From: a virus
Taxonomy: Duplodnaviria > Caudoviricetes
DNA: 64,000 nucleotides
Virus record (IMG/VR): IMGVR_UViG_3300017499_000044
Location: 1 to 64,000 of that record
Direction: 5' to 3' (one strand)
Part shown: positions 4,523 through 62,560 of the stretch, piece after piece
How the letters are laid out: the number at the start of each line of letters is the position of its first letter
Numbering within the stretch: position 1 is the first letter of the stretch
The notes under the pieces: model-generated
Told to the model about the DNA's origin: nothing
What the model saw: only the letters and a program-made list of their open reading frames with translations
The model's database searches: none
Made by a program: the position numbers and the translations under genes

Positions 4523-7500
4523 GTGACATATATAGGAAGACATCTAACATATCAGAAATACATATATAAGCTGCACAGCAGCAGACTGCGGGAAGAGCGT
4601 TGGCGGCTTACTCTGCCGATTGATGAGGCTCGCAGAAATGACGAGGTGATTGCGCTTGCCGACAGTCAGATACTTCGCTGGATAGACGAGCTGAACGGTA
4701 TAGTCGGCGGCGAGGATAGAGTTCGCGAGATAAGAAGAGAGATTGAGGAACTAAAGAAAGAAGCGAATAATATCCAAAACAGAAGAAAGATTAAAGCTTT
4801 ATATAAAGAACTTGACGATATTCAATTCAAACCTGATTATATGTGTTTGATTATTGACAAGAAACAAGACTATTATAAAGCTTGCAAAGGTTTTACAATC
4901 AATGGTATCAAGTACAAGAGACTCTTGGGGACAAGCGGCGGCATTAAGCGAAGCACAATAGTGTTCGTGAACGAAGTGCTTGCCGATGAGCTGAAGAGGC
5001 GGATTGATAACGATAGGGATATGAGCAAGGAGCTTGTACCCGCAAAGCTTGAGGCATACAAAGCTTTGACGTGCAGTGCCTCAACGCCGGTATCAATGCC
5101 TAACGGAATTCTTGTCGTAGACGATTGCGAGACAAGCTTCTTATCAGATGTGGTTTACCTAACCGACGAGTGCGAGGGCGATCCGATTATGGAAGAGCGT
5201 GAAAATCAAGAGATAGTGCTTGATGCGTCAGACGGCTGTGGCATGATGCTTCCTTCGTTGGCTGAACGGTGGAGCAAGGAATTGAAGCTTGACTACGTTA
5301 TCGGTGGAGCAAACACACGCGCTCCGTTTGAGAAGGGTGTTGTGTTTGCGTTTGACTTTTTGGAGTTCGCCGAGAAGGTTGCCGGAGAATATATCGTGAA
5401 GGACGCATGGGGCAACGACGTGGATATTAGAAATGTTGAGCTTGTGCTTACAACGTCCATGCTTAAGCTGTGGGATTCGTATGAGAGCTGTGATGATTAT
5501 CTATCCAAGTCCCTCGCCAACGGTTATACCTTCGCCGTAACGAAGGTTTGCCCGAAGCGGCTTGAGAGCGAGCGTGCGACGAATTATCAATACATACAAG
5601 CTTTGGATTTGAGCGATGAGGATATAGAAGAATTGATTGAGCCAACGATGACCGAGATTAAAGAAGTACTTGGTGGCGATTGGCGCAAGACGGTATTGTT
5701 TCTTAAAGGTGTGGGGCTGACAGAGAAGAGCGTTGCTTCTCTGGATGATGATTATATCAAAGCGATGATGATAGACAGCCGGATGGCTGACGACCCGTAT
5801 GTCAGGAGCAGCGTCTACCAGTTGATTAAGAATAGAATAAACGAGGCGAAGGTGGGCGCACTTAAAGTTCACGGCAACTATTCTATTGTGTCGGGAGACC
5901 CGTATGCTTTATGCCAGCACATATTTGGGCTTGAGGTTACGGGGCTGCTTAAGGCGGGCGAAATATACAACGGGTATTGGGCGGATAAGGAGGCAGACAA
6001 GTTGGCTTGCTTCCGTTCTCCTATGTCGTGTCATGCCAATATCCGATTGGTAAGCCCGGCGCGTTCCGAAAGCGTCCGGCATTGGTATCGGTACATGAAT
6101 ACGTGTACTGTGTTTAATGCGTGGGACACGGCGATGATGGCATTAAATGGATTGGATTAACTTTGGATAGTCCCATATATCGGTAACGATGTATAGCAAA
6201 TTCGGTGAACCCGTAAATGCGGGGTGTGGCGGAAGCGCTGCTATCGGTGGAACTCTTGTGAATAAGTAAGCGATAATAGTAAACAGAAGGTGGTGATAAT
6301 AATATGTGGAAGGAAATTCCCGGATATGAGGGGTATTATGAAGTAAATGAGAATGGTCTGGTGCGAGGTGTTACGCGTCGCATCACTCGCCGCGACGGAC
6401 GCACATATATCCGCAAGGCACGGGCGTTGGCACCAAAGGTAATGCACGACGGATATTTGTCGGTAAACTTATGTAAAGATGGTGAACAGCGTAGGTTTTA
6501 TATACATAGATTGGTTGCATTTTTATTTGTTGATGGGTATAATGACGGTTTAGAAGTAAATCATAAAGACTGTAACCGTCAAAATAACAAATTTGATAAT
6601 TTAGAATGGGTGAGCCACCAAGATAATATTAAGTACACTAAATCTCTAAAGAGACACGTCAGTGATAGAGATTTGACTGGTGCTAATAACCCAAACTATC
6701 ATAACCATACGCTACATGATAGATTTCAAAATGAGCCAGAATTACGTATGGTTCAGAGTAGATCCGGAGCAAAGAATGGCAGAGCGAGAGCTATTCGCGC
6801 ATATCTTCCGAACGGCGAAGCGTTAGACTTTTCATATATAGGAGAATGCGCAAAATATCTAATTGCAGGCAACTACACTAAATCAAAGAATATAAATTCT
6901 GTATCGACTTATATACGCAGAGCTGCGGAGAGCGGTGGTTTGTATAGAAACTTGCGATTTGAAATGATATAAAATAAATAATAATATACAAGACAACACC
7001 GAGCCAAGCCGGTACGGAAACGTGCCGGTGGGTGTAACGACTACTGAATACGGGCTAAGTCCGCAAAACAGATATGCCTATGAATCAGGTACATATATGG
7101 TGAAACTCCATATGTGGAAGTGCCGAACGTCGGTCACAACCGACGAAGAGATAGTCTACTCCTTGTGGTAACACAAGGTATCAAGGTTCGACGGGGATTT
7201 GGTTATGCTTACAGACAATCCCGTCATAGTCAGAAATGTCATAAGCCAGCCCGCTCTGATGTGCGCTCAGAGGAAGGCTAAGAAGATTGTACCTACCGAA
7301 GATGATTTTATACAAGCCAACATAGACAGCTTCGGCAACGAGATAGGCGCAATCACAAACAGAACAACATCAATGTATGAGATTCGCTCTCACTATTCTG
7401 AGGACAGCGAAGAGTATAAGATACTTACATATCGCGTGCAGTGCGGACAGCTGTACCAGCAAAATCAAATCGACCGCAGCAAAGGTATAATATGTAAGTC

Positions 7501-8290
7501 TATGCCCGCTGAATGGTATGACAGGCACGCTATCAATAAGCTTGGGGATGAAGACAAGAAGAAACTTTATCGTTCCGTAGTCGCAGATAAGAAGCCTTAC
7601 TTCATGAGATACATCTATCCCGCTCTGATGAAGCAATACAACACACATATAAAGAATACGAACAAGAAAGCACTCAGAGAGTTTGGTATGACGGTTGATG
7701 ATTTGCTGGATATTCCGAAGGAAAAGCGAAGCAAGGAGCAGTCGGAATTTTTAAAGCAATATAATCGCAAGATGCCCGTCGGCATTGGCGACTGTGTTAT
7801 GAATAAGATATGTCGAAGATTTGAAGAAGAGTTCGATGGGTATATCGGACGATACGGCGGCGAGGCAGATTTTGATTATTGTTTCATGCGCGGTGAAGCG
7901 GAGTACAGTCAGGCGCAATACGATGCCATTAACAGACTGTATAAAGATTACAACCAACGGCTGCGCGGATTTATGGTATCGTCTAACTATGAACGTATAG
8001 ACAGCGAAGATTCTCTTTCAGGCTTGGCTGTCATAAATGACGAGTTTGCGGAGCGGTGCGCTGCGGTCTGTCCGAATGAGGATTCTTTGTGTAATATAAT
8101 ATTGGACATATGCTACACCAAAAGTTCTACCAAGCGATTTGCTTGGAGTATGTGCGGAAGCTCTATTATACATAATTTACTATCTGCGAATGATAACACT
8201 ATCCTGTATCCGATAGCCGATGTGAACGGGGATGTAGAATATTGCCACAGCAGGTTTACAGTTAGGTCAAGAAAGGTTGGGGATGATTAA
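4523..8290 (+). CDS. YonO-like single-subunit (double-psi-barrel, RdRP-related) DNA-dependent RNA polymerase; join(4523..6157,7187..8290), about 912 aa
   Basis: Motifs DASDGCG, RAPFEKG and FRSP; splicing restores ALNGLD|FDGDLVMLTDN (DxDGD metal-binding motif); position next to HU and the packaging genes matches SPbeta. Confidence 0.88.
6158..7186 (+). ncRNA. Group I self-splicing intron in the RNA polymerase gene
   Basis: 5' exon ends in U; P1 GGAU|UA pairs with UAGUCC (U6157.G6170 wobble); P3 UUCGGU/GCCGAA; P4 UCGGUG/CACCGA; P7 GACUA(7039)/UAGUC(7152); P9 CCUUGUG-GUAA-CACAAGG; terminal G7186; reading frame restored. Confidence 0.92.
6304..6972 (+). CDS. Intron-encoded NUMOD4-HNH homing endonuclease (intact)
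   Basis: WKEIPGYEGYYEVNENGLVR (NUMOD4); HRLVA...VNHKDCNRQNNKFDNLEW (HNH). Confidence 0.92.
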   Translation: MWKEIPGYEGYYEVNENGLVRGVTRRITRRDGRTYIRKARALAPKVMHDGYLSVNLCKDGEQRRFYIHRLVAFLFVDGYNDGLEVNHKDCNRQNNKFDNLEWVSHQDNIKYTKSLKRHVSDRDLTGANNPNYHNHTLHDRFQNEPELRMVQSRSGAKNGRARAIRAYLPNGEALDFSYIGECAKYLIAGNYTKSKNINSVSTYIRRAAESGGLYRNLRFEMI

Positions 8291-9063
8291 TGGGAATAGT
8301 TTTAAATGAGCGAGAGGCTGCCTGCGAGGCGATCAGAAGAAAAGAGCTCGGCAGGCAGCCCTCAGAGACATTGCGCCGAGTGGCTGGATACATCAGAGAA
8401 GGAAATAAAAGATTAACAAAAAGAGATGTAAGAAAACAGCTAGAGATGTTTCTATTGCGATGTGATTCCAATGTGTCGCTGCCAAATTGGTCTAAGTCAT
8501 TATCCTACGCGGTTAGCTATGCGTTTAAGCATGAGCTTATTCAAATAGAGTCACTGCTTATCAGTAAACCGGAGATGGATAGGATCGATTCCCTTGAGAG
8601 CAGGCAGGCGAAGCGACTCGCATTCGTTCTGCTCTGTCTTGCAAAGTATTGGGATACAGCCGGTGAGCGCAACGATCATTGGGTAAACTGTGAAGATAAA
8701 GAGATTATGAAAATGGCTAATATTAATACATCCATACGTAGGCAATGCGCATTATATGCGCTGTTGAAAGAAGAAGGTTTTATAGAATTTGCTAAGAGCG
8801 TTGACAATATCAACGTGCGCGTATGTTTCGTTGAGAGCGGAGAAACGGCGATGGCTATTACTGACTTGCGAAACTTGGGGTATCAATATCTTAAGTTTCA
8901 CGGAGAGCCGTACTTCGAATGTCGGAACTGTGGAATTATAACAAGGTATAGACATCCCGGCAAAACGGGTGGACAAAAGTACTGCGATTGCTGCGCCGCA
9001 ACCATCCATGCAAAGCAAAAGGCTGATTCAAATGAGCGACAGCGAACGGCGGATAACGATTAA
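8290..9063 (+). CDS. Hypothetical protein with C-terminal Zn ribbon, translationally coupled to the RNAP gene
   Basis: TAATG overlap; CRNC...YCDCC. Confidence 0.75.
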   Translation: MGIVLNEREAACEAIRRKELGRQPSETLRRVAGYIREGNKRLTKRDVRKQLEMFLLRCDSNVSLPNWSKSLSYAVSYAFKHELIQIESLLISKPEMDRIDSLESRQAKRLAFVLLCLAKYWDTAGERNDHWVNCEDKEIMKMANINTSIRRQCALYALLKEEGFIEFAKSVDNINVRVCFVESGETAMAITDLRNLGYQYLKFHGEPYFECRNCGIITRYRHPGKTGGQKYCDCCAATIHAKQKADSNERQRTADND

Positions 9064-17026: not shown

Positions 17027-19101
17027 ATGAATGAAATGAATGAAATTGCAAAGATCGCCATTGATGGTTACAAGGGCAGTGTGGAAAAATATTCTGTAGC
17101 TCAGTCACAGAAGCTGCTTCGCGATGCGCTTGTCGAAGCGAACGGCGGAAGTACAAAGCTGGATTATAAAAAGATTCGTGACGGCAAGTGTCCGGGACTC
17201 TTTACTCTTCTTGAGGAAGTATTATCCCGCACGGTTGTCGAGGGTCTACAGGGTTAGAACACTCTACGTGAAATAGCTCGCTTGCACAGGAATGTGCTTG
17301 ACAAACGATCTGCTTAATTGCTGGAAACCCCTAAAGCTGTTTGTGCCACAACATAAGAATGAAACAAGTCTATATGTGACGGCGGCGAAAGCGGAAAGAA
17401 ACAAACAGATGGTGCAAGGTTAAATCCTAAACATCTTAATAATGGGCAATCAGCAGCCAAGCCTTGAATAAAGGAAGGTTCAACGATCATCCCTGAGTGG
17501 GAGTAGGGACAAGCGTCTCGAAATGGCAGACATCCAAAAAGGATGAAGATATGATCTGTGCTTCGCAGAAATGCGAAGAGTGCGTCGCACTGATTAGATT
17601 TAGCGAACCTTTATTGATTAAGCAAAATAAAATACAGAGAAGATGAATTGAATACCAAAATTTGAAGATTTATCGGGACAGACATTTGGTCGTCTTGTTG
17701 TTGTTCAGAGGAAGCAAGATTATATAAGTCCGTCTGGATATAGAAAAACTCAATGGCTATGCAGATGCTGCTGCGGAAATGATATTATAACAACAGCATC
17801 CTCTTTAAAGAAAGGAGACACTCGATCGTGTGGTTGTCTGAGCGTAGAAAATAAAAGGCAGAACGGACTAACTCATGGAATGTCTAAAACTCCATTGTAT
17901 ACCGTATGGAAGGGGATTAAAGCGAGATGCTACAATCCAAACCACAAAAATTATAAAACATATGGAGGATGAGGGATCGTGATGTGTAATGAGTGGAGAG
18001 ACTCGTTTGTCGCATTCGAGCGGTGGGCTATGAGTAATGGATATATTCCGGGGCTCACAGTTGATCGAATTGACAATGATGATATTTACACTCCGGCTAA
18101 TTGTAGACTTGCGAATCGAGCTGAACAATCAAACAATCGAAGAAATAACATTATGATTACATACCGTGGTCAAACTCATGGAATTAAATGGTGGGCTGAG
18201 AAAACTGGCGTGAAATATGAAACTATTTATTATCGAATAAAACATGGGTGGAGTGCCGAAGAGGCACTCGCTTTATAAATATAATTGCTTAATCAATTTA
18301 AATCAAACGAAACAGGACGAATACTTTAATACATTAGTTGAGTTCAGAAATGTTGCCGAGGGCGATCAGAATCAGTTCTTGGTAAAAGACAGCAATCTTT
18401 TTGTTGTTGCTGAATCAGCTGACGGAACACAGGGAATACGCAGACAGAGACTCGGCGGTACGAGCGAGGTGTCTATTCCGACAAGATTCTATACGGTAAG
18501 AATCTACGAAGAGCTTAACCGCATACTCTCAAATCGTGTAGACTTCAACGATATGATAAGGCTGGTGTCCGAATCATATAAGCAGAAGCTTCTTAATGAT
18601 ATATATGCTCTTTGGAGCAAGGCTACGGCTGAATCGTTCGGCGGAGCTACATACTACCCGGCTGCGGGTTCGTATAATGAGGATACTCTTCTTGAGCTTA
18701 TTTCTCATGTAGAAGCGGCTGCGGGCGGCAAGACGGCAACTATCATCGCAACTAAGAAGGGTGCGAGAAAGCTTAATCCGTCTATTGTCAGTGACGGTGC
18801 GAAGGATGACCTGTATAATCTTGGTTATTTCGGCAAGTTCTACGGAACACCGGTCATCATAACACCGCAGCGTCACAAGATTGGCACGACTGAATTTGTA
18901 ATGGACGATAACGTTCTTACAATAGTTGCCGGTGACGACAAGCCTATAAAAGTAGTTTATGAAGGCGACCCGTTGATTATAATGGGGAATCCGTTGACAA
19001 ACGCAGATCTTACACAGGAATACTTCTATGGCGAGAAATACGGAATGGGTATCGTACTCGCCGGAGGTAATGCGGGTATCGGTCGTTATGAGATGGTGTG
19101 A
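17027..19101 (+). CDS. Major capsid protein; join(17027..17254,18316..19101), 337 aa
   Basis: Splicing gives VVEGLQG|DEYFNTLVEFRN; strong RBS; position and size fit an HK97-fold MCP. Confidence 0.82.
17255..18315 (+). ncRNA. Group I self-splicing intron in the major capsid gene
   Basis: P1 GGGU|UA pairs with UAGCUC (U17254.G17276); core elements AAUUGCUGGAAAC, AAUCAGCAGCCAAG, UUCAACGAUCA, AAGAUAUGAUC; P9 CUUCGCA-GAAA-UGCGAAG; terminal G18315. Confidence 0.92.
17652..18278 (+). pseudogene. Intron-encoded HNH endonuclease with premature stop
   Basis: One frame reads DLSGQTFGRL...WLCRCCCG...SCGC...HGMSKTPLY..W...RC...YGG*GI.MC.EW...DRIDND..Y.P.NCR; TGA at 17970-17972 replaces the R of YGGRGI; no ATG start. 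Confidence 0.85.
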
Positions 19102-25547: not shown

Positions 25548-28500
25548 ATGGCTGATTTTTTACTAACAGTGGGTATTGACACATCGGTGAGCCTCGGGCA
25601 AATACAAAGCGATATTAATAACATGATCTCGAAGGTTAATGCCAATCCGCCAAAGGTAAAGGTGGATCTGGAAACAGACTCCGCTTCAATGAATAAATTT
25701 AAACAACAGATAGCGAATATATCCAAGAATGCTAATGTTCAAAATATTATGCCTCGATCGACAGGCAGTGCGAACGCTGGGAGCGGTATAGCCGCTGACT
25801 TATCGAGAATTACATCGAACGCGCAAACCGCAACAAAAGCCTTCCAACAAATGAAGACTACGATGAGCAGCGTCAATGCTGATAAAATCCGGTCAGCTTT
25901 ATCGGGCATAGACGGGATAAGCAGCACCAACGCGGACAAACTTGTTTCATCGCTTGAACAGGTTGAGGGTACTATTACAAGCATAAAAGCTAAGTGGGCG
26001 AATACGAATAAAGGAGAGCCGCTGTTAAGCGTTGACGTAAAAGCAAAGAATGAGCTTGGACAAACAATCGACCAGCTAATTCAGTATAACGCGAAAACGG
26101 GAGAGATAAGCAAACAGATTACATCGGTCACTCAGAAGTTTCAAGAGGCGGAGACGGCGTCAAAGGCAGCCGCTCAAGGGATGAAGGAGGCTCAAGCCGC
26201 CGCCGCCAAGACGAGTGAGTCTGCAAAGTCGATGTCAGAAAGTCCTAAAGCTCTTACAAGCGGAACCAAGGAATATTCAAACGCATTAACTCAAATAGAC
26301 ACCAAAGTCAAAACTATCAGAGGTCAGCTTGAAAAGTGGACTGCTGCGAAAGGCGGAAAGAGTTCTGAATATTACACACAACTCAACAAGTCCGTTACGG
26401 ATCTCGAAACGCTGCGGAAAAGTGTCGAGAGTGGAACGTTAAACCAAGAGGATTTTACGAAACGATTTGCGGCTATAAAAGCCAGCGCGGCAGAGGCTGC
26501 CAAGGAAATACAGAAGGTCGACGAGGCGACAGCCTCAAGTTCTAAACTTATCACGAGCGATACTACGGCGTATCAAAAGGCGGAAACGCAAATAAATAAC
26601 CTGCTTGGTCGCATTACAGAGAACCGGCAGAAGTGGACTGCCGCAAAAGATGGGAAAAGTTCCGCTTCCTATACGCAGCTTGGTCAATCCGTTTTGGATC
26701 TCAAAGCGCTGAAAGGCGAACTTGCCGGAGGAACATTGAGCGAATCCGATTTTGCCGCGCGATTTAACGAAATAAAAGTCAGCGCAGATCAAGCCTCGGC
26801 GGCTATAAAGGCTGTCTGCGAGAATATGAAGGCTACAACTTCGGCGGCTCTTACGAGCGGGACTAAGGATTATAATAACGCACTGGCTAAAATAAACGAC
26901 CTATCAACGAGTATTGCGCGAAATCGCGAAAACTGGACTGCCGCACAAAACGGGCAAAGCTCTGCGTCTTATGCACAGCTTGAGCAGTATGCTACAGAAC
27001 TTGAGAATCTAAGGAACAGACTTGAAAGCGGAACATTAACCGGAGCTGAATTTAACGAAGGGTTTGGAAGAATATCTTCCGAGGCAAGATTAGCCTTTTC
27101 GGAAATACAACGCCTCGGCGAGGCGATGCCTGCGGCTTCTAACAATCTCGCAAAGGGAACTGCACAATATATGAATGCGCTGAGAGAAATAAACACTCTG
27201 CTCGCAAAAGTTAGAAGCAACCAAGAAAAGTGGACTGCCGCGAAAAATGGAAGAAGTGCTGCGTCTTATGAGCAGCTTACGCAGTCTATCGGGTGGCTTG
27301 AGACTCTTCGAGACGACGTGGCTAATGGCAACGTGACTAACGAGGCGTTTAGAAAACGTTTCGCCGAAATAAAAGCAGACGTAACGACAGCTACAACAGC
27401 TATAAAAGGAGCGGGCGAGGCGACTTCAACTTGGGGTGAAAGAATACGCTCCCTCAGCGGTCAATTCAGCACATGGTTCAGTATAACTCAGGCTATCATG
27501 CAGGGCATAAACGCAATTAAGCAAATGACCACGAACGTGATAGAGCTTGACTCGGCGATGACCGAACTCAGAAAAGTTACAGACGCATCCGAGGCAACAT
27601 ACGATAAATTCTTAACCAGTGCGTCAGATCGAGCTAAGAAGTATGGAGCGTCGCTTATAGATACCGTATCGGCAACATCTGATTTCGCAAGGCTTGGTTA
27701 CGGCATTGACGACGCGGCGAAGTTAGCAGACGCATCTATTGTATATAAAAACGTAGGAGACGACATAAAGAGTATCGGCGATGCGTCATCGAGCGTAATA
27801 TCTACCATGCAGGCATTCGGAATAGAAGCAGAAGATGTTATGACGATAGTCGATCGCTTTAATGAGATAGGCAATAAGTATGCTATATCGTCAGGAGGAG
27901 TCGGCGACGCGCTTATGCGTTCAGCGGCTGCGATGCAGGCGGCAGGCAATACACTTGATGAAACAATCGGACTTGTAACCGCAGCCAATACAGTCGTGCA
28001 AGATCCGGATAAAGTCGGCACGACACTGAAGACGGTGTCTATGTATTTACGCGCGGCTAAGACCGATGCGGAAGAAGCGGGAGAGTCTACCGATGGAATG
28101 GCTGAGAGCGTATCAAAGTTGAGAGACGAGTTCCTCACTTTGACAAACGGCAAGGTTGATATACAATTAGACGAAGATACATATAAGAGCACCTACCAAA
28201 TTCTTAAAGAGTTGTCTCAGGTCTGGGATGAGCTGACCAATATTACACAGGCTAATATACTTGAGAAAATCGGCGGTAAGAGAAACTCGAATATCGTTGC
28301 GGCGCTGCTTGAGAATTTTCAGATAGCAGAGGATGCGATGAATACTGCCGCAGATTCTGAAGGGTCAGCACTTGCGGAAAATGACAAGGTGCTGGACTCA
28401 ATACAAGGTAAGATAAATGTGCTGAAGGCTTCGTGGCAGGATTTATCGCAGGCGTTTATTTCGTCGGATTTTATAGGCAACGCGGTAACGGGATTGACGG

Positions 28501-31500
28501 GGCTTGCGAATACGTTTGAAAAATTGGCAAGTACTATGGGTCCGCTGCCGACGACAATAGGAGTTCTTACGACAGCTTTGAGGTTATTCGGGAAAAACTT
28601 CGGAATATTTTCTCAAGCAAACGGACAGCTTCAGATTTTCGGAAAGAGTCTTGAACAAGCCAAAAGTAATTTTCAGTCGTTCGGGAATGTGATTACTTCG
28701 ATTAAGAACGCAAGCAGCTTGAAAGAAGCAATTGCTCTGATAGGAAATGCAGGTCGGCGTGATGTGGATAAGATACTTGCTAATTTTGCACCAGCTGATC
28801 AGGCGGCAAACATTACCGCTCTATCCAACTTCCAAAGAGAGGTACGACGGGAAGTCACTCCAAATACTTCTGATACCGGGCTTATGACTATGACGAATAC
28901 CCCGTGGAGTACGTACATTCAAGACCTTCCGGAAGAGATGCAGCGAGTAGCTGCCGAGATACAAGCAGGTAATACAAGCGTGGAGGAATATGCGGCAAGT
29001 CTGGGCGCAATGGCAATAAAATCCAAAGCCGCAGCAATTGCTACTACCGTGTTAAGCACGGCTATGAATGTTGCTTTTAATATGCTTATCTCTTGGGGTA
29101 TATCTCTTGCAATACAAGGCATGGTCACAGGACTCGACAATCTGATACACGCAGAGGAAAAAGCAGCAGAAAAGGCTAAAGAAATAGCACAACAGTCAAG
29201 AGAGGCAGCAGATAGTCAAGCGGAGAAGGTCAGCAACTTATCCTCGTTGATAGAAAAGTATCAGCAGCTTGCGTCGAGTGAAACGCAGGACGCGTCAACG
29301 AGATCGGAAATAGCTGATATACAAAGTCAGATAGTATCTTTGATAGGAGCGCAAGCGGGAAACTTAGATTTAGTAAACGGCAAGCTTGATGAACAACTTG
29401 CAAAACTGCGAGAGATACAAGGGACTGAGGTCGAACAGGGCGTAACAGATGCGAGAAAGGCATACCTTGATTCCACTAAATCCGTAGATAATAGTTACTC
29501 AATGCGCATCGATGATGCTAATAAAGAATATAAAGAGATACGCATGATAGATCTTGACGAGCGGGTTATGCCGACGACGCAAAAGGGTCGAGAATATTAT
29601 AAACAATTGGAACTGATAAACGAGGCGTGGAGTTCTAACGGGTATGGAGATATGTATCTTAAACCCACTCTGGAATTGTTTGATAAAGCTCGAGTTGGTC
29701 TGCGATATAATGGAAATCTTTCTATATCAGAACAAATAAAAGCGTTGGATGAGGCTATTCAGATATTAGAGGATAATAGTTACACTGATTCAAATTTATG
29801 GAATAAACTCGTAGAAGACCGCAAAGAGTTCGCCGGTAAAGATAGCGAATATGCTCACCAGCTTAGTACAGCGACCGGCTTGCTGAACAGTCTTACTCAG
29901 CAAGAGATTGGTCAGGGTGAAGACGTACACACTTTTAATGAATATATCAACTATCGGGATAAATTAATCGACACAATTGCTAACGATAGAACAATACGCA
30001 GCGCAATTGAGGATGGGGTCTTAAACAATGATCAAATTACATCTACTATCGACAATTACCTCGGCTCCCTCGAAAAATACGAAACATATTACAAGCAATG
30101 GTCTGCAAGTATAAAAACAAATAACGATGAAAACATTACACAGCTTAAGCGGAGCTACGGCACATTGAGAGCCGTTCAAAAGGCAGAAATGGAGTCTGCT
30201 CAGTTAGCGATGGAAGAAGGAGTTAAGAATTTTAATCTTGACAACTTCTTGAATAAGACCAAATTCGGAAATATAGATTTAAATAACAGACAGGCTCTCG
30301 AATGGGATATTGGCAATCGGATTGATTACCAAGACGCTATAAAGTCATGGAATATGGGAATGCCGAATGTGGGTGATATTTCCACTGTGCTTGGCATGAG
30401 TGAAACTTTTGGAAATAAAGATAACCCGGTAGAGATTGCTTTCTCTCCTATGCTTCAAACAGACCAAGGCGCAGTCCTTCTGAGTTCGCAAGCGGTTCAT
30501 GCTTATATGGAAATTCTTTTCGCTGAACTCGAAAGAACCAAGGGAAACTGGACAACTGAGGATTTGCTCGAATTAGACAGCAGGGGTACGGTGGTCGCCG
30601 GACAGGAGATAAAGAACATCATAGCAGATGTGGGAGAGACCGCTCAGCAGACCGGCATAGCCATGCACTATTTAGGAACGGATGGGGCTATATCTCAGGA
30701 CGCTATTGATAGTGCAAAAGAGTTCGGTGAGTGGATAGACCAGCTGTCTGACAACGACAAAACAATTGCCTACAGCATGAGCTTCGAAACTGACAGCGCA
30801 ACGTGGACTTTGGAGCAGTGGCATGATGAACTTCAAAGATTAAAGGGCGATACAAGCGCGTTAGACGAACTTAAGACAAAAGTCAAGGCTATACAAGATG
30901 TTGCGGCGGGTACTATCAACTTTGACATCTCGGCTCAAACAACGGGCTTTGATACTGTTAATGAGGCTATATCATCATCGGTCTCCTCTACGGGGCTTAC
31001 TTCTGATATGATTTCAAAGATAACGGACAGGTACAGCAATCTGGAAGTTTTTGATGCGTCGGCATTATTTGAGAAAACTGTTAACGGAATACACCTCAAT
31101 GCTGATTCGCTGCGAGAGCTTGAGGCAGAATACAACAAACTGAACGGAGTGTATCTGCAAACAGCGTTAGATGAACAGGTAGAAAAATATAACGAACTTA
31201 CTAAATCAATAGCCGAGTGTAGCGATGAGACAAAACGCGCATCGTTAATGAGTGAGCAGCATACTCTGAAACAGCAAATAGAAGATACGGCTGATTTGGC
31301 GGCGCAGTATGACGGGCTGACATCCGCTTATAAAAAGTGGGTTGACGCGCAGTCTGCTCCCGAAGAAGGAGATATGTACGACAACTTACAGTCGAAGCTT
31401 GAGGATATTAAAGAACTGTATAAGGCGGGACTCGTCGGAACGAATGAGTTCAGGTCTGCGGTGCAGCTTATGACCAACTTTGATATATCGGATTGGGACA

Positions 31501-34500
31501 TAGAGGATATTGTAAAAGCGTATGACAATGGCTATCCCTTGATGACGAGATATTTCACGGAAGGACAGAAGGGATGCAATAACTTCCTCAAAGACGTATC
31601 GAAGCTTAATGATGAATGGGCGCACCTTAACGCGGACGGGAGTTGGGAGATTAACTTCGGAGAAGGCGACGATCAGGCGATTGCTGATAAGCTTGGGGTA
31701 AGCGTTGATGCTGTTCAAATGATAATGCGAAAGCTGTCAAACTATGGATTCAAGATAGATTTGACATCCATCTTTGACGATCTTGATTTAGCAGAAGATA
31801 AACTCACAAGCGCGAATGAGAAGCTTAAGGAACTCGGTGAAACAGAGGTTACTTTTAATTTCAACTCAAGCAGCGTTACTGAGCTTGACGAGCAAATAGA
31901 AGAAGCTCAGAATGTATTGGGACATTTTAAAAACGCGGACGGCTCAATTAATATTAGCACCGAGGGCGCACAAGAAGCGATAGATGTTTTAACCGGATTG
32001 ATACGCAGGAAGCAGGAACTGGAAGCACCAGCGGTAATGAAGGTGGACGTGACATCTCCGGAAACCGATGCAGAAAACGCAATTTCTTTATTGCAGCAAT
32101 TTCAAACAGCCATTAACCAACAAAATTTAAATGCGGCGATAGGGCTTGACACAACCGATGCTCAAAGCAAGATTGATTCGCTTGTAACAAAAATACAAGA
32201 ACTACAGAACAAGAATCCTGATATTGCAGCAGCTCTCAGCATAGACGCCACAAGCGCAGACACAATTAAGGCAAGCATAGAGGCACTTACTCCTGAGGTT
32301 ATGGTCAAAGCCGGTGTCGACGAAGCAAAAATAAGTGAATTTAAATCAACCGAAATTGAGGCATCAGGTACTGTTACATGGGATAATAATACATCTTTAG
32401 TTGACGCATATGCAAAGATTCCAAAGACCGCGCAGGGTGTGGTAGAGTGGAAGAACAATACAGACGAAGTTGAGACCGGCTTCTCGGCATCGTCACCGGC
32501 TTCCAATTCTACTCCTACCCCCTCGCCGTCTCCTTCTAGGGGTGGTCTCGGAGGGGCGTATAGCGGAGGCACCCGAGGCGCAAAGAAGTCCGGTATGTCT
32601 TTGGGCGGTGAACTCGGAGAAGAACTTGTTGTCAGGGATGGCAGATATTTTACGATAGGCTCAAACGGAGCGGAGTTCTTCAATTATAAAAAGGACGACA
32701 TCATCTTCAATGCCGAGCAAACGAGGCAGATATTCAAACAAGGCAAGATTACAAGCGGGAACAGAAGAGGCAGAGCTTTAGTCACAGGAAATGCCTTTTC
32801 GAGCGGAACCGGTAAATTTTTCAATACAGAAACTGCCATGACCTATTCTTCTAAAGACTCGAAGAAGAAATCATCCGAAACAAAAGAAGAATCAGAATTT
32901 GAAAAGCAATACAAGAAACATCAGCACCTGCTGAATATGGAACAAGAAAGCGCAGAGACTTACCTTAACTGGCTCAAAGGCGCATATAAAGACGCGTATA
33001 ACTCCGGGCAAATAGAACTGGATGAGTTCTACAAGTACGAGGAGGAAGTATACAGCAAATCTAAGGAACTGTTCAACGACACCCTCGGAGATATGGAACA
33101 CGAAATCGAAATGCTTGAGCATCAAAATGCAAGTCCCGATGCAATAGTTTCCAAGTATGTCGAAATGATGGATGCCGTGAGTAAGCAGGAAAAGCAATAT
33201 CGAGCTCAGGGGTTAGACGACAATTCAGACGCCATACAGGAGCTTCAGGACAAATGGTGGAATTACTACGACAAGATTAAAGAAAAGCGTATCGAACAAT
33301 ACGAAGATGCGGTATCCGCAAGCGAGAATATAGTAAAGCAAAACGAAACTCTGCTTGACAATGCTGTATCCGGCGGAGATATTACCAAAGCAAAAGAATA
33401 CAGCGACACAATTATCGCTGAATACAGACGTGCGCAGGAAACCATTCACGCCGAGGCGGAGTATTACAGGTCTCTCGGCTACGAAGAAACAAGCGATGAA
33501 ATATCCGATTTAAGCAGCAAATGGCAGGAGTATCAGGATAACATCACCGAAACTGCAAAGAAGGGCTATAAGGAAATAGTAAGCAAGGCGACGGATATAA
33601 CCGACAGCCAGGTTACGGAAACCGAGCGACTGCTCGACAGAAACCTAAAGAGTATTACCGAAAGAACGATGTCGGGTTCAAAGAATGCGTTTAGCACCGC
33701 TTTTCTCCTCCCGTCATTAGACGGCTCGGAATACAAGCCCGAAAGACAGCATAAGAACGCATCTGCAGGCGGCTCACAGGATGCGCAGGTAATCGAAAGC
33801 ATTAATTTGACAGACGCTACGAATTACAGCGAGCTTGCCGAGAATATAAAAAGCTCCCTTGCGCAGGAGATAAGTCGGGCAGTCTCGGAATTTACGCGGG
33901 ACGACTGGGCTCAAATGATATACAGCAATCCTCTGCGGGCGTTTGTTCTTGACGAGGAAAGCTGGAGCAAGCTGTCTGAGCAGATAAGCAGCTATATGAC
34001 CGAAATGAATCTTTCGGAGGAAGAGTTTGGAACAAGCGAAAACTTCCTTCAGAATGTCATAGACAATATGATTGTTGACACAATCAACAACGACGGCAGT
34101 TCGTGGGAGAACCTAAGCGAGCAGATACGCGGATATATATCATCTATCTGGAATTTGTCAAGCGAGGATTGGAATGCTCTATGTTCGGCTCAGCCTCTCA
34201 TAGCCGCAAGCTTAAAGATGAGCGGAAACGATTCATGGCAGGCGCGTGAGCAGCAGCTTGTCGGAAACAACGGCATCATTCCCGAAATGATGAACAGTGC
34301 GGACGCTGTTGTGACAAACAGCTCCCTTGGCGCACCGACATACAGCAAGACCGAGTATTCGAATCTTGGCATATCCATGGGCAACTCTATTATAGCCTCG
34401 CTCCAAACAACAGTGTCTGGTGCGAATATTAGCGCGAAGGTCTCGTACGGTGGCGACACAGGAATAACAGATACTCAATCGCCGACAGGCGGGACGACAT

Positions 34501-37500
34501 CGGCTTCGTCTATAGTGGCTGCGGCGCAAAACGAGGTAAACAGCAACGGCGGTCACCTCGGCGATGACAACAAGTACAGCAGAACAATGGGCGGAGGGAT
34601 AGAAGAGTGGTGCGGAGACTTCGTTGATTACTGCGCAAAGGCGGCGGGAATAAACGCACCCCGTCAAAGGTCTGTTATAAACGGCGCATCTTCAATGTCC
34701 TCTATGGGCTTGTACAGAAGAGCCGATGAATATGACCCCAAGCCCGGCGATTTCATTTATTTCAGCAATTCCAAAAAAGGCGGTAATGCTTCGATAGGCT
34801 CACTCACACATATTGGTATTGTCGAATCATTTGATAAGGCGAACGGCGTTGTACATACCATTGAAGGCAATACAAACCACGATTCGCTTATGCGAAGGAA
34901 TAGACCGCTGAGTGAAAACTACATCGCAGGATACGGAATCACATCCTCTCTCCCCCGCTACGAAAAGGGGACTTCCGGAACGGCGGGAGGCAGTGCGCTT
35001 GTCGGAGAAAAGGGCAGAGAGCTTGCAATACTGCCCAGCGGACAGGTTGTTATACTCGGCAAGCACGGAGCGGAAATAGTTGACCTGCCGGCAAGAACAC
35101 AGATACTCCCCAACGACGATACGGAAGAGGTACTGTCATACACGGGTTCTAATATAGACGGACACACAATACAGAAATATGCAAGGGGGACAACCGTTGA
35201 CCCCATGGACATAGCAAAATACATAAGAGAGCAATACCCCGAGGTGACGGATCAGGGCATAGCGGCAATACTTGGTAATATATACGCGGAGTCAGGGTTT
35301 AACACGCAAAGCAAAACCACCGAAGCGTACGGCAGCGGGAGCGGCAGACAAGTAAACAGATGGGGTTTATTCCAGCTTGATGATGAGCGTATCCCGGGAT
35401 GGAGCGGCATTGTCGCAGGCGGCGACTGGAGAAAACAAATAGATACTGTCTTAGCCGAAGGAAGATATAAAAACTCCGGCATGGGAAGCAATTCCAAATA
35501 TAACGTCTGGGATACGATATTAACCAATAGTTCTCTAAGCGCTTCGGATGCTGCAGCTTTATGGGATAAGCTTTACGAACGTTCCGATGGCTCGGCGAGA
35601 CAAAAACGCATGACCAAAGCGGAGGAGTACTATCAGCAAATTGCGAGCGGAAGTCTTGGTAGTTTGTCTGAGCTGGCTATCGCCGTTGACGCAAACACAT
35701 CTGCCACAGAAAGTGCGACTGTTGCCGTTAAGGCAAAGGAAAAAACCATAACCGATGAGATTGCGGAGATAGTCAAGAACCCTTCTACATATTCCCGCGA
35801 TGTAATTAACGACTACATGACGTATGTCTCGAACCGAGACAGCATGATTAACACTCAGGCTCAAGCGGAGAAGTACGGGGATATTGATGCCGCCGAAACA
35901 ATCGAAGGCTCCCGTAAGCTTCAGGACATGAGTGAGACACTCACAATGCAGCTTGACCTGTACAATAATGCCGCCGCAGAGTACACAAAGCAATATGAAG
36001 CACTTCAGAATTTGTATTGGGAAAAGGCTGCAGGCGGCGCGGGAAATGAAGTGCTGAGCGAAATAATCAGCGCAATGAGCGATGTTTCCGCAAAGATAGA
36101 TGATGTTTCCGACAAATGGCAGGATGCGATAGAAAGCATGGGTGACTCGTTCACCGCACTTCTCGATAACATGATGGCGCAATACCGCGAGGCGAACAGC
36201 CGAGCGCAGAGGTCTTTAACCAATCTCTCTCATATGGCGGAAATGACATCAGACCCTTACTCACTGCACAACATATACGCGTCTATGGGCATGGAATACG
36301 ACAGGCAGTCTAAGAACTATAAGGCTATTATGGATGCGGTGAGCCAAACGGCAAGCTACATACGAGGCGAAAGTGAAAGCTCATCCGCTCTCGGCAATGC
36401 GGCTTTAAAAGGCTATGCCGCAGAACAGGGGCAAAAGGTTCGTTCTTACTATCAATCGCTGATAGACAGCGGAAAACTTGGCGACTACGAGTCGTTGTTC
36501 TATTCGGACGGAACGGTTGACACGTCTGCGCTTGAGGAGACCATAAAATATTTCACAGATGAAGAAAAAGCTGAGGCGACATCCTTTATCAATTGGCTTT
36601 CTCAGTACAAGATTTTGTGGGAGAATGATATATCGAACCGTTTCACAGACATAACATCCAATTTCTCCTCGGAGTTTTTGAATACATTGTTTGACGGAGA
36701 CGGCGAGATAACTCAAGCCGCATATGATATGGTGGACGGATTCACCGAGCTTGACGTACCGGCGAGACAGGCGGGCGCGGCTCTCGGACAGCAGGTAAGA
36801 GAAGGATGGGCTGAACAATTACAGGACTTCGGCAACTATGAATATTGGTTTACCGACAACGTATTCGACGCGAATAAGTTTACCGAGTCAACATCGGATT
36901 GGTCACAGGAGAAGAAGGATGCGGCATGGCAATTCGCTCAGGAACTTGCCGAGGCTAAGAGTATGTACTCAAGTCAAACCTTGGACGAATATCAGCGAGA
37001 TTGGAATTTATTCCTAACATTCCTGTCATCGTCGAAAAAGGTTTACTATGAGAATCAGGAAAGCTATAACGAATCTCTTGAGAGGATGTACGAAAACTCA
37101 AGGCAGATGATGGAAGCCGCAAGCGATGCTTTGAGCCAAATAGACAGCGTGTACAGCACTCTGCATAATGCGGCGAATGAGTACGCAGACAGTGGATTTA
37201 TAAGCGTTGACACGTATCAGAGCATATTAGACCTTGGCGTAGAATATCTTGCCATGCTCAAAGATGAGAACGGTCAGCTTGTCATAAACGACACCAGCAT
37301 CAAGAAGGTTCTTAAAACAAGAATACAACAGGTCGGTGTTGAGACAGCCCTTAACTACATCGAGCAGCTCAGGATGGCAAGGGCTGAAGGCAATGTTGAC
37401 ACGCTTACTAATCTGCTTTATGTGACCGATGAGCTTAGCACCTCCACATGGGACTTGGTATATGCGGAGCTTGCATCGGTGGGACTCAGTGAGCAGGAAT

Positions 37501-38966
37501 TTAACGCGGCATACCAAAGAATAAACTCGATAAGGATATTGGGCGACACAGCGGCTCAGGGTGTCGGAAAGACAAGCGACAGCATTATTGACGGTTTGAA
37601 CGACACGGCAGACGCTCTTGACTCTATTCTGCAATACACAATAGATATGATAAAGCAGGAAACGCAGAACAAGATAGACGCGCTTGAAGAGCAAATCTCG
37701 GATTACAAGGAAATCATAAGTCTGCAAAAGGAATCTCTTGAGGTTACACGGGAACAGGACGACTACAACAAGAGCGTATCCGACAAGCTTAAAGAGATTT
37801 CGGAAACGCAGTCGCGCATAAATCAGCTTTCGCTTGACGACAGCCGCGAGGCGCAGGCGGAAAAGAAATCCTTGGAGGAGGAGCTTTCTGAGCTTCAGAC
37901 AGACCTTAGCGATTATCAGGCGGACTATGCCTATGAAAAGACGACCGAGTCCCTCGATAAGATGGCGGAGGCGTATGAGGAAGAAAAGAATGATGAGATA
38001 GAAACTCTGGAAAACAGCATATCATCTTATCAAAAGCTTTACGATTTGGCTATTGCCAGAATTAAATCCGAAGGCTCGGATTTGCTCGATCAGCTCTTAA
38101 GCTGGAACGAGGAATACGGAAGCGACCTTAACAGTACTATTGTTGAGGCATGGAAAAACGCATCCGACGCATTGGATGAATATAATTACAAATACGAAAA
38201 GGCTCTGAAGTCTGTGAATAATCAGATAGAGGATTCTTCAAACAATGAGAACTTGGTAGTCGGGAGATCCGGCTCAGGCTTGGGATCGAACACGTCAAGT
38301 TCATCTGGTTCATATGATACTCAGGCGGCAAATACTATTGTAGCACAGATGAAGGCTAACTCGAACGCATGGTACGGGGCGAGCGAGACCGAACGAGAAA
38401 ATCTTGCCAGCGAAAATCAATACTTAGGTAAACAACTAAAGAATCTAGGCGTGAAAGCAGTATACGACAGCGGTTCTGGAACATGGTATATAGGAAGCGT
38501 TGGCGGCACAAAGCTTTATGACGCATATCCGAAATATCACACCGGCGGTGTTGTGGGAGCTTCAACGTCTAAGAAGGATGAAGTCATGGCAGTTCTTCAG
38601 GATGGAGAGCTTGTTATTGACAAAAAGCGCGAAGAAGGATTGTATAAAATAATAGACTTCGCTCAAGTTCTCTCAGAGCGCCTCGGCAAGGTTATAGACA
38701 CAACAGGCTTCAAAAACATATTCAGGGCTTCGTCTGTCGTTCCCGACATAAGCAGCCCTGCACCGACAGTGCAGTCGGGTGTAGGAACGATAGACTTTAA
38801 CCCAAGCATAGAAATCAATATAACACACAACGGAGAAATGACGGATTCTGACGCAAGACGCTACGGCAACACCGCAGCGGAAGCAGCTCTTAGTGAATTG
38901 AAAGATGCGTTTACAAAAAGAGGCATTACAACACTGGGAGGCGCAGCGTTAAAGTCATCAAGATAA
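25548..38966 (+). CDS. Tail tape measure protein (4472 aa) with CHAP and phage-tail-lysozyme-like domains
   Basis: TP901-type core (ELDSAMTELRKV...FARLGY...VGTTLKT); CHAP WCGDFV/THIGIV/TIEGNT at about 34510-34940; AAILGNIYAESGFN...YERS at about 35210-35640. Confidence 0.92.
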   Translation: MADFLLTVGIDTSVSLGQIQSDINNMISKVNANPPKVKVDLETDSASMNKFKQQIANISKNANVQNIMPRSTGSANAGSGIAADLSRITSNAQTATKAFQQMKTTMSSVNADKIRSALSGIDGISSTNADKLVSSLEQVEGTITSIKAKWANTNKGEPLLSVDVKAKNELGQTIDQLIQYNAKTGEISKQITSVTQKFQEAETASKAAAQGMKEAQAAAAKTSESAKSMSESPKALTSGTKEYSNALTQIDTKVKTIRGQLEKWTAAKGGKSSEYYTQLNKSVTDLETLRKSVESGTLNQEDFTKRFAAIKASAAEAAKEIQKVDEATASSSKLITSDTTAYQKAETQINNLLGRITENRQKWTAAKDGKSSASYTQLGQSVLDLKALKGELAGGTLSESDFAARFNEIKVSADQASAAIKAVCENMKATTSAALTSGTKDYNNALAKINDLSTSIARNRENWTAAQNGQSSASYAQLEQYATELENLRNRLESGTLTGAEFNEGFGRISSEARLAFSEIQRLGEAMPAASNNLAKGTAQYMNALREINTLLAKVRSNQEKWTAAKNGRSAASYEQLTQSIGWLETLRDDVANGNVTNEAFRKRFAEIKADVTTATTAIKGAGEATSTWGERIRSLSGQFSTWFSITQAIMQGINAIKQMTTNVIELDSAMTELRKVTDASEATYDKFLTSASDRAKKYGASLIDTVSATSDFARLGYGIDDAAKLADASIVYKNVGDDIKSIGDASSSVISTMQAFGIEAEDVMTIVDRFNEIGNKYAISSGGVGDALMRSAAAMQAAGNTLDETIGLVTAANTVVQDPDKVGTTLKTVSMYLRAAKTDAEEAGESTDGMAESVSKLRDEFLTLTNGKVDIQLDEDTYKSTYQILKELSQVWDELTNITQANILEKIGGKRNSNIVAALLENFQIAEDAMNTAADSEGSALAENDKVLDSIQGKINVLKASWQDLSQAFISSDFIGNAVTGLTGLANTFEKLASTMGPLPTTIGVLTTALRLFGKNFGIFSQANGQLQIFGKSLEQAKSNFQSFGNVITSIKNASSLKEAIALIGNAGRRDVDKILANFAPADQAANITALSNFQREVRREVTPNTSDTGLMTMTNTPWSTYIQDLPEEMQRVAAEIQAGNTSVEEYAASLGAMAIKSKAAAIATTVLSTAMNVAFNMLISWGISLAIQGMVTGLDNLIHAEEKAAEKAKEIAQQSREAADSQAEKVSNLSSLIEKYQQLASSETQDASTRSEIADIQSQIVSLIGAQAGNLDLVNGKLDEQLAKLREIQGTEVEQGVTDARKAYLDSTKSVDNSYSMRIDDANKEYKEIRMIDLDERVMPTTQKGREYYKQLELINEAWSSNGYGDMYLKPTLELFDKARVGLRYNGNLSISEQIKALDEAIQILEDNSYTDSNLWNKLVEDRKEFAGKDSEYAHQLSTATGLLNSLTQQEIGQGEDVHTFNEYINYRDKLIDTIANDRTIRSAIEDGVLNNDQITSTIDNYLGSLEKYETYYKQWSASIKTNNDENITQLKRSYGTLRAVQKAEMESAQLAMEEGVKNFNLDNFLNKTKFGNIDLNNRQALEWDIGNRIDYQDAIKSWNMGMPNVGDISTVLGMSETFGNKDNPVEIAFSPMLQTDQGAVLLSSQAVHAYMEILFAELERTKGNWTTEDLLELDSRGTVVAGQEIKNIIADVGETAQQTGIAMHYLGTDGAISQDAIDSAKEFGEWIDQLSDNDKTIAYSMSFETDSATWTLEQWHDELQRLKGDTSALDELKTKVKAIQDVAAGTINFDISAQTTGFDTVNEAISSSVSSTGLTSDMISKITDRYSNLEVFDASALFEKTVNGIHLNADSLRELEAEYNKLNGVYLQTALDEQVEKYNELTKSIAECSDETKRASLMSEQHTLKQQIEDTADLAAQYDGLTSAYKKWVDAQSAPEEGDMYDNLQSKLEDIKELYKAGLVGTNEFRSAVQLMTNFDISDWDIEDIVKAYDNGYPLMTRYFTEGQKGCNNFLKDVSKLNDEWAHLNADGSWEINFGEGDDQAIADKLGVSVDAVQMIMRKLSNYGFKIDLTSIFDDLDLAEDKLTSANEKLKELGETEVTFNFNSSSVTELDEQIEEAQNVLGHFKNADGSINISTEGAQEAIDVLTGLIRRKQELEAPAVMKVDVTSPETDAENAISLLQQFQTAINQQNLNAAIGLDTTDAQSKIDSLVTKIQELQNKNPDIAAALSIDATSADTIKASIEALTPEVMVKAGVDEAKISEFKSTEIEASGTVTWDNNTSLVDAYAKIPKTAQGVVEWKNNTDEVETGFSASSPASNSTPTPSPSPSRGGLGGAYSGGTRGAKKSGMSLGGELGEELVVRDGRYFTIGSNGAEFFNYKKDDIIFNAEQTRQIFKQGKITSGNRRGRALVTGNAFSSGTGKFFNTETAMTYSSKDSKKKSSETKEESEFEKQYKKHQHLLNMEQESAETYLNWLKGAYKDAYNSGQIELDEFYKYEEEVYSKSKELFNDTLGDMEHEIEMLEHQNASPDAIVSKYVEMMDAVSKQEKQYRAQGLDDNSDAIQELQDKWWNYYDKIKEKRIEQYEDAVSASENIVKQNETLLDNAVSGGDITKAKEYSDTIIAEYRRAQETIHAEAEYYRSLGYEETSDEISDLSSKWQEYQDNITETAKKGYKEIVSKATDITDSQVTETERLLDRNLKSITERTMSGSKNAFSTAFLLPSLDGSEYKPERQHKNASAGGSQDAQVIESINLTDATNYSELAENIKSSLAQEISRAVSEFTRDDWAQMIYSNPLRAFVLDEESWSKLSEQISSYMTEMNLSEEEFGTSENFLQNVIDNMIVDTINNDGSSWENLSEQIRGYISSIWNLSSEDWNALCSAQPLIAASLKMSGNDSWQAREQQLVGNNGIIPEMMNSADAVVTNSSLGAPTYSKTEYSNLGISMGNSIIASLQTTVSGANISAKVSYGGDTGITDTQSPTGGTTSASSIVAAAQNEVNSNGGHLGDDNKYSRTMGGGIEEWCGDFVDYCAKAAGINAPRQRSVINGASSMSSMGLYRRADEYDPKPGDFIYFSNSKKGGNASIGSLTHIGIVESFDKANGVVHTIEGNTNHDSLMRRNRPLSENYIAGYGITSSLPRYEKGTSGTAGGSALVGEKGRELAILPSGQVVILGKHGAEIVDLPARTQILPNDDTEEVLSYTGSNIDGHTIQKYARGTTVDPMDIAKYIREQYPEVTDQGIAAILGNIYAESGFNTQSKTTEAYGSGSGRQVNRWGLFQLDDERIPGWSGIVAGGDWRKQIDTVLAEGRYKNSGMGSNSKYNVWDTILTNSSLSASDAAALWDKLYERSDGSARQKRMTKAEEYYQQIASGSLGSLSELAIAVDANTSATESATVAVKAKEKTITDEIAEIVKNPSTYSRDVINDYMTYVSNRDSMINTQAQAEKYGDIDAAETIEGSRKLQDMSETLTMQLDLYNNAAAEYTKQYEALQNLYWEKAAGGAGNEVLSEIISAMSDVSAKIDDVSDKWQDAIESMGDSFTALLDNMMAQYREANSRAQRSLTNLSHMAEMTSDPYSLHNIYASMGMEYDRQSKNYKAIMDAVSQTASYIRGESESSSALGNAALKGYAAEQGQKVRSYYQSLIDSGKLGDYESLFYSDGTVDTSALEETIKYFTDEEKAEATSFINWLSQYKILWENDISNRFTDITSNFSSEFLNTLFDGDGEITQAAYDMVDGFTELDVPARQAGAALGQQVREGWAEQLQDFGNYEYWFTDNVFDANKFTESTSDWSQEKKDAAWQFAQELAEAKSMYSSQTLDEYQRDWNLFLTFLSSSKKVYYENQESYNESLERMYENSRQMMEAASDALSQIDSVYSTLHNAANEYADSGFISVDTYQSILDLGVEYLAMLKDENGQLVINDTSIKKVLKTRIQQVGVETALNYIEQLRMARAEGNVDTLTNLLYVTDELSTSTWDLVYAELASVGLSEQEFNAAYQRINSIRILGDTAAQGVGKTSDSIIDGLNDTADALDSILQYTIDMIKQETQNKIDALEEQISDYKEIISLQKESLEVTREQDDYNKSVSDKLKEISETQSRINQLSLDDSREAQAEKKSLEEELSELQTDLSDYQADYAYEKTTESLDKMAEAYEEEKNDEIETLENSISSYQKLYDLAIARIKSEGSDLLDQLLSWNEEYGSDLNSTIVEAWKNASDALDEYNYKYEKALKSVNNQIEDSSNNENLVVGRSGSGLGSNTSSSSGSYDTQAANTIVAQMKANSNAWYGASETERENLASENQYLGKQLKNLGVKAVYDSGSGTWYIGSVGGTKLYDAYPKYHTGGVVGASTSKKDEVMAVLQDGELVIDKKREEGLYKIIDFAQVLSERLGKVIDTTGFKNIFRASSVVPDISSPAPTVQSGVGTIDFNPSIEINITHNGEMTDSDARRYGNTAAEAALSELKDAFTKRGITTLGGAALKSSR
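26249..27430 (+). repeat. Four diverged ~99-aa tandem repeats in the TMP N-terminus
   Basis: WTAA(K/Q)xGxSxxxYxQL recurs about every 297-300 nt. Confidence 0.9.
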
Positions 38967-60025: not shown

Positions 60026-60098
60026 CTCCTCGAGTCCGGCTCGAACGGACGACATCGTGATTAACAGTCACGCGCTCTGCCAACTGAGCTATCGAGGA
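60026..60098 (-). tRNA. trnN: tRNA-Asn (GTT), CCA not encoded
   Basis: TCCTCGA acceptor stem, GCTC/GAGC D stem, CGTGA-CTGTTAA-TCACG anticodon arm, GTCCG-TTCGAGC-CGGAC T arm, discriminator G. Confidence 0.95.
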
Positions 60099-61759: not shown

Positions 61760-61775
61760 ACCTTCCTTTCCGAAC

Positions 61776-61850: not shown

Positions 61851-61887
61851 ACAAAGTATATATTTACAGGTGCCGCATTACCGCAGG

Positions 61888-62022: not shown

Positions 62023-62025
62023 ATG

Positions 62026-62529: not shown

Positions 62530-62560
62530 CTTTATCACTTTCCTTTCTTTGTTACAAATG

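Follow-up and report, generated by a model that had tools for sequence, protein, structure and literature searches.

A probable group I intron within the catalytic aspartate motif of a YonO-like phage RNA polymerase gene

Polymerase introns and split polymerase genes in described phages

The RNA polymerase YonO transcribes the late operon of phage SPbeta, and its catalysis requires a triad of aspartates (PMC5467207). A gene for a YonO-like polymerase lies in the first 64,000 nucleotides (nt) of IMG/VR virus record IMGVR_UViG_3300017499_000044, the stretch analyzed here and called the window; the whole record, from a gut-type phage, is 94 kb long and estimated to be 80% complete. In this gene the motif that holds the triad, DFDGD, is interrupted after its first Asp codon by an insert at 6158-7186 (here and below on the plus strand unless noted), which is very probably a mobile group I intron. 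A similar arrangement has been described in phage PhiPA3, where conserved aspartates of a phage RNA polymerase have beside them a putative group I intron that encodes the HNH nicking enzyme gp210; in co-infection, this enzyme makes a nick at the homologous site of the PhiKZ polymerase gene, with a competitive advantage (Birkholz et al., Science 2024; PMC11620839). The host gene in PhiPA3 encodes the beta subunit of a multisubunit jumbo-phage virion RNA polymerase, and the insertion lies outside the Mg-binding DxDGD loop, whereas in the window a single-subunit YonO-type enzyme, known here from sequence alone, is entered within the Asp triad itself.

For the YonO family, the literature on YonO and SPbeta was found to mention no intron in yonO or a homologue, and a review of SPbeta speaks of introns only in bnrdEF. 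To that extent an earlier note on this DNA, made from the letters of the window and a list of its open reading frames (ORFs), was right in knowing of no described case, but split genes already stand in public records, in the case of Clostridium phage c-st since 2005, and the novelty is modest. In c-st (L001), whose gene CST179 is 45% identical to exon 1 of the window's gene, an ORF-less insert of about 311 nt interrupts the same motif between CST179 and CST178; this insert (5678-5988) has a group I signature (Rfam E 3e-4), and the record labels the two genes as YonO homologue, "N-ter only" and "C-ter only". It differs from the window in its junction, read as DMD/GD two codons farther downstream, and in having a more canonical, Rfam-like ribozyme without an endonuclease. 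The Bacillus phages phi3T (phi3T_60/59), vB_BsuS-Goe11 and Goe14 (yonO_1/yonO_2) share with the window the gene family, the split and the intron lineage (nhmmer E 1e-10, with a common GUGAAC-hairpin-GGGUGUG signature), but their insertion is at TID/FAK, YonO residue 625, some 90 residues downstream of the motif at residue 535. The phi3T insert (L208, 4986-5400) has no ORF, and those of Goe11 and Goe14 (L004 and L005, 5486-6790) hold a 300-residue ORF of GIY-YIG type. As for the endonuclease encoded in the window's intron, its comparison is with I-HmuI, the intron-encoded HNH nickase of Bacillus phage SPO1, which mediates exclusion of a relative's markers. The likeness is that of a homologous endonuclease over residues 2-112 (PDB 1U3E, E 2.4e-18), but the SPO1 intron is in a DNA polymerase gene, and the C-terminal DNA-binding region of the window enzyme differs.

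The interrupted gene and its uninterrupted relatives

The listed ORF at 4523-6160 ends ...MMALNGLD and then meets a TAA stop codon at 6158-6160; its final sense codon, GAT, supplies the first Asp of the triad, and exon 1 is accordingly placed at 4523-6157 (545 residues). From 7187 the sequence TTC GAC GGG GAT TTG gives FDGDL, the start of FDGDLVMLTDN, in the same frame as a second listed ORF that begins at TTG 7199, and exon 2 runs from 7187 to 8290 (367 residues and a stop codon). Because the exon-2 fragment was called only from TTG 7199, D-x-D-G-D is absent from both listed ORFs, as the earlier note had pointed out; the exon ends that it had proposed (NGLD at U6157, FDGDL at 7187) and the in-frame TAA at the intron's start were likewise confirmed. 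An intron-split polymerase is thus called as two "hypothetical" ORFs, neither with the active site, and YonO-type polymerases are under-recognized in gut and Firmicutes phages because gene callers split intron-bearing genes. Joined in frame by script, the exons give a protein of 912 residues.

The assignment of exon 1 to a YonO-like polymerase, another claim of the earlier note that stands, has support from Pfam (RdRP, PF05183, 29.2 bits against a cut-off of 23.8) and from tblastn, where SPbeta YonO and its Spbetavirus orthologues match residues 122-500 at 29% identity (E ~2e-21). Uninterrupted genes of Enterocloster phages are closer to exon 1 than YonO is (41% identity), and matches were also found to Bacillus phage BUCT082 (33%) and Thomasclavelia phage TR-TP1. 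The homologue in PMBT24, one of the Enterocloster phages, carries the annotation "RNA-dependent RNA polymerase"; searches of PDB and NCBIfam with the exon sequences gave no matches. In a multiple alignment, the joined protein is colinear at the motif with the intron-less polymerases of PMBT24, TR-TP1, BUCT082 and SPbeta, the NGLD/FDGDL junction falling against NGCDFDGDA in PMBT24, NGCDFDGDL in TR-TP1 and FDNDGDK in YonO, so that the D-x-D-G-D triad aligns with the DNDGD of YonO at residue 535. It is on the closer homologues and this alignment, not on pairwise similarity to YonO, that exon 2 is assigned to the family. Moreover, exon 1 matches phrog_25339 (profile positions 3-555 of 558) and exon 2 matches phrog_35857 (3-324 of 354), in both cases end to end; these two families, labeled "unknown function", appear to have been built from intron-split YonO-like fragments such as CST179 and CST178 of c-st.

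The proposed junction was examined in 80 IMG/VR loci that encode relatives of exon 1 (52-73% identity), using tblastn searches with 200-residue queries from either side of it, the C-terminal end of exon 1 and the N-terminal end of exon 2. The motif is contiguous in 75 of these loci, with a gap of 0 nt at the junction, most often as DFDGD (41 loci), then as DYDGD (8), DKDGD (7), DFDAD (7) and DWDGD (6), and rarely as DMDGD (3), DSDGD (2) or DADGD (1). This is the colinearity that the earlier note's reading had predicted, and the window's own exons are open and 60-73% identical to the intact relatives. A related insert occupies the same codon boundary in 4 of the 80 loci: in L027, L029 and L031 it is 1018 nt long and has an ORF, and in L048 it is 299 nt long and has none. 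Further loci were sought by scanning for the 14-nt core GGTGTAACGACTAC and filtering on the J8/7-P7 motif, a requirement that removed most of the core matches as due to chance; the scan added L103, L186, L203 and L108 at the window's site and L154 at a neighboring site. Among cultured phages, blastn with the gene and the 3' half of the ribozyme found almost nothing. As a separate observation, the glycine of the motif is not invariant, being replaced in BUCT082 (L003, DFDYD) and in seven IMG/VR loci (L077-L083, L087; DFDAD) whose genes are otherwise intact.

Ribozyme, endonuclease and the case for splicing

The insert is 1029 nt long, opens with the in-frame TAA, ends in the terminal guanosine (omega-G) at 7186 and resembles subgroup IA of the group I introns. 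A nhmmer profile of the ORF-less members matches the window in two blocks, 6150-6258 (E 5e-17) and 6985-7194 (E 4e-39), and the window intron is therefore this ribozyme enlarged by about 726 nt, which include the endonuclease gene and sit in the terminal loop of P5. Rfam at its gathering thresholds (50 bits for RF00028) missed the intron, and found a second intron and a transfer RNA (tRNA) gene elsewhere in the window. In E-value mode RF00028 matched 7070-7178, spanning P8, J8/7, P7' and P9 (29.9 bits, E 2e-5), so the Infernal group I search that the earlier note had suggested did return a match, but one below the cut-off. The ORF-less insert of L048 was aligned by Infernal over the full RF00028 model (30.5 bits, E 3.6e-6).

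Stronger evidence comes from covariation. RNAalifold on four ORF-less members gave P3, P4, P5, P6, P6a, P7.1, P7.1a, P7.2 and P8 with 29 compensatory pairs; to these a hand-built P1-P10 model adds P1, P2, P7 (a pseudoknot), P9 and P10. In this model 92% of cells are paired, compared with 36-44% in controls whose partners were slid by 1-3 columns, and 31 of the 86 pairs are changed on both sides, compared with 2-11 after sliding; no model as good arose in 500 shuffles. The clearest helix is P3, which exists in six complementary versions (for example, UUCGGUG/UGCCGAA in the window, UCCGGUG/CGCCGGA, CUGGGUG/CGCCCAG and CGGGGUG/UGCCCCG), and P4, P5, P7.2, P8 and P9 covary in like manner. Every helix of the model is satisfied by the window, with the conserved core of P3-P8, P7 and J8/7. 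An alternative P3 beside P7 (AUUCG/UGAAU) was inconsistent across homologues and was replaced by the covarying long-range pairing. Subgroup IA is marked by P7.1 and P7.2 between P7 and P3', and extra helices are found there at 7044-7088 and 7092-7116, with 11 of 17 pairs in helices 12-14 compensatory.

From 5' to 3', P1 pairs exon GGAU (6154-6157) with GUCC (6170-6173) of the internal guide sequence (IGS), with the expected wobble at U6157.G6170, and its loop contains the P10 guide UUGGA (6163-6167), complementary to UUCGA at the start of exon 2 (7187-7191). Both guides follow their exons: P1 is CGAU/GUCG in L027 and a 7-base-pair CAAGGAU/GUCCUUG in L154 at the neighboring site, and P10 tracks the first codon of exon 2, as UUGGA/UUCGA in the window, UUUU/AAAG in L048 and UAUA/UAUG in L103. 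P2 (6175-6194) is an 8-base-pair hairpin with a GUAA loop, and the 5' strand of P3 (UUCGGUG, 6201-6207; helix 4 of the model, 100% paired) is followed, in an unusual position before P4, by two small conserved hairpins (6210-6223 and, after GUGU, 6228-6239 with a GAAG loop). The 5' strand of P4 (UCGGUG, 6244-6249), J4/5 and the 5' strand of P5 (CUUGU, 6255-6259) lead into L5 (6260-6987), the terminal loop of P5 that is expanded by the endonuclease gene; the nhmmer profile breaks at 6258/6985, and L5 is 1-9 nt long in ORF-less homologues. Beyond it come the 3' strands of P5 (6988-6992) and P4 (CACCGA, 6997-7002), P6 (GCC/GGU, 7003-7005 with 7031-7033) and P6a (7009-7028). P7, the guanosine-binding helix, pairs GACUA (7039-7043), a 5' strand that is invariant in all homologues and fits the Rfam consensus, with UAGUC (7152-7156); between this 5' strand and P3' lies the peripheral domain of P7.1/P7.1a (7044-7088) and P7.2 (7092-7116). 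The 3' strand of P3 (UGCCGAA, 7121-7127), P8 (7128-7145), J8/7 with P7 3' (7146-7159), P9 (7161-7178, GUAA loop) and the 3' tail UAUCAAGG, which ends in omega-G, complete the ribozyme. All of the elements that the earlier note had named, from the P1 wobble and P10 through P3, P4, P7 and P9 to the terminal G, were thus located. The predicted ligated transcript joins ...GGATTGGAT to TTCGACGGG... (also written as ...AATGGATTGGAT joined to TTCGACGGGGAT...). Two other boundaries were rejected because the frame is lost with either: a 5' splice after U6152, at an upstream repeat of GGAU, and the 3' end at G7178 that Rfam suggests. A stop codon opens the intron in the window, L048, L103 and L203, and in other members a stop falls within 11 codons; in the td intron of phage T4, an early stop of this kind keeps ribosomes off the ribozyme core.

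The endonuclease gene (6304-6972, 222 residues) is preceded by a Shine-Dalgarno-like AAGGUGGUGA (6287-6296), 7 nt upstream of its ATG. Both NUMOD4 (33.6 bits) and HNH_3 (38.3 bits) exceed their Pfam cut-offs, HNH families of PHROG are matched as well, and the ORF, of I-HmuI type, is full length and appears intact, in keeping with the earlier note's description. The L027 intron has an ORF in the same loop, and the two products share 44% identity over the full length of the window's protein, compared with 67% for the corresponding exon-1 proteins.

From these features a course of events can be proposed. The host polymerase would transcribe the split gene, and ribosomes would halt at the intron-opening TAA, leaving the ribozyme free to fold. 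The IGS would pair with GGAU, external guanosine would attack after U6157, and P10 would align exon 2 for ligation, with release of omega-G7186. Spliced mRNA would yield the 912-residue polymerase with its triad whole; unspliced mRNA would yield only the 545-residue fragment, expected to be inactive, and since that product lacks an intact triad, the phage's own (probably late) transcription would require splicing. The NUMOD4-HNH enzyme, translated from its own Shine-Dalgarno within the P5 loop, would nick intron-less alleles near the DFDGD codons, leading to homing and co-conversion of the flanking exon, and might also handicap co-infecting intron-less relatives. Homing followed by decay would fit the sporadic presence of the intron among close relatives and the ORF-less derivatives at the same site; these two facts, with the homologous ORF in the L027 loop, are the grounds for regarding the intron as mobile. 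Five intron-bearing alleles (L027, L048, L186, L203 and L108) begin exon 2 with AAAGAC, giving Lys and hence DKDGD, at a position where most intron-less alleles have Phe or Tyr and seven (L038 and six others) also have DKDGD. Either a co-conversion tract or the past loss of an intron could account for the AAAGAC start.

Several points weigh against an intron that is spliced and indispensable. The RF00028 score stays 20 bits short of the gathering score, a shortfall attributed to the 726 nt inserted in L5 together with the extra hairpins. Those hairpins, paired between P3 and P4, are atypical of group I introns, and we know of no described subgroup with such a conserved pair. P1 is short, with 4 base pairs and then a mismatch. 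Exon 2 by itself has no significant pairwise BLASTP similarity to SPbeta YonO. The polymerase gene is present in a single copy in the 94-kb record, but at 80% completeness a second, uninterrupted copy might lie elsewhere in the genome. Finally, the late-gene role of the window polymerase is extrapolated from SPbeta, with which, as with PMBT24 and BUCT082, the window shares the gene order polymerase, small ORF, HU, terminase; both splicing and cleavage are inferred from sequence.

Among other explanations, the one that survives best, though we consider it unlikely, is that splicing acts as a regulatory gate or timer for the polymerase and hence for late transcription. Since the polymerase gene stands just upstream of the HU-terminase-head block, a delay in the polymerase would delay the late genes; the recurrence of introns at several sites of the gene could also be read this way. 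However, the gate must be dispensable, because most relatives (75 of 80 at the window's site) are intron-less, and the distribution and the ORF-less derivatives fit selfish homing and decay. A good deal less probable still is an intron that has decayed and lost the ability to splice, in a polymerase pseudogene of a defective or fragmentary phage. Such a relic would go with the sub-threshold Rfam score and the incomplete record, but the window retains all core helices, J8/7, P7, omega-G and the two guide pairings; its exons remain open reading frames, and the endonuclease ORF has kept its full length and its two domains. Least probable of all is that insertion of a free-standing homing endonuclease has left two separate polypeptides, which reassemble as protein without splicing: annotators called two separate genes in c-st, phi3T and Goe11/14, separate PHROG families exist for both fragments, and the mobE-split nrdA of phage Aeh1 is a precedent for such reassembly (PMC3045599), but the Asp triad would have to be shared between two chains, no start codon of the second ORF lies far enough 5' to include FDGD, the endonuclease ORF is flanked by a conserved, covarying ribozyme of about 300 nt, ORF-less versions at the same site retain that ribozyme, and the boundaries restore the frame exactly.

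A lineage of introns in YonO-type genes, and other features of the window

A mobile group I intron in the window would be one of many, for the YonO-type gene family is an intron hot spot, and introns are frequent in its metagenomic relatives. Two of the sites lie in the triad: site A, that of the window, divides D/xDGD, and site B, 6 nt downstream, divides DxD/GD; introns of the window's lineage stand at site B in L007 and L154, and the more canonical insert of c-st is read to lie there too. An intron that scores at Rfam grade (93.5 bits) lies, as its frame is read, just 5' of the first Asp codon in L035, which has a second one, of the window's type, after CGQL; introns are also found near CGQ..QQ in L036 and L038 and after FRAPMT in L047. 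As its predicted junctions read, the window's lineage occupies at least 4 conserved sites of the gene, including the two that are 6 nt apart in the Asp triad. Its members are marked by the pair of hairpins between P3 and P4, the P7.1/P7.2 domain, a sub-threshold Rfam score, and P1 and P10 guides that are rewritten for each site. More copies of the lineage were seen downstream in the polymerase gene or beside it, at 6759-7267 of L077, where two copies stand almost in tandem, at 2-836 of L186 and at 2308-2532 of L154.

A tentative extension, which we would not yet favor, is that one distinct lineage has been repeatedly re-targeted within YonO-type genes by guide-directed site hopping (reverse splicing) and not by retargeting of the endonuclease, with its nucleases serving as weapons between co-infecting gut phages, as that of PhiPA3 does between its own. 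If so, YonO-type genes would offer a natural setting in which to study how introns change targets. In any case, the understanding of group I introns and homing is left unchanged. With the window's intron, the single-subunit, two-barrel polymerase of temperate Firmicutes phages would join the essential phage enzymes that have homing introns at catalytic codons, and it would do so through an intron lineage overlooked by standard covariance models.

Immediately downstream of the polymerase gene, a 257-residue ORF (8290-9063) shares 1 nt with the polymerase stop codon and encodes CxxC...CxxC motifs close to the C-terminal end; it has no similarity to YonO, and ORFs of like size lie 3' of the polymerase gene in PMBT24, BUCT082 and TR-TP1. 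The second group I intron of the window (17264-17578) is of a canonical type and belongs to another lineage, scoring 72.1 bits with RF00028, above the gathering score. The tRNA gene (60026-60098, minus strand, 63 bits) stands beside leftward ORFs at 60161-63999, a region that may mark the edge of the phage or its attachment region. In the tail region, a single ORF of 4472 residues extends from 25548 to 38966.

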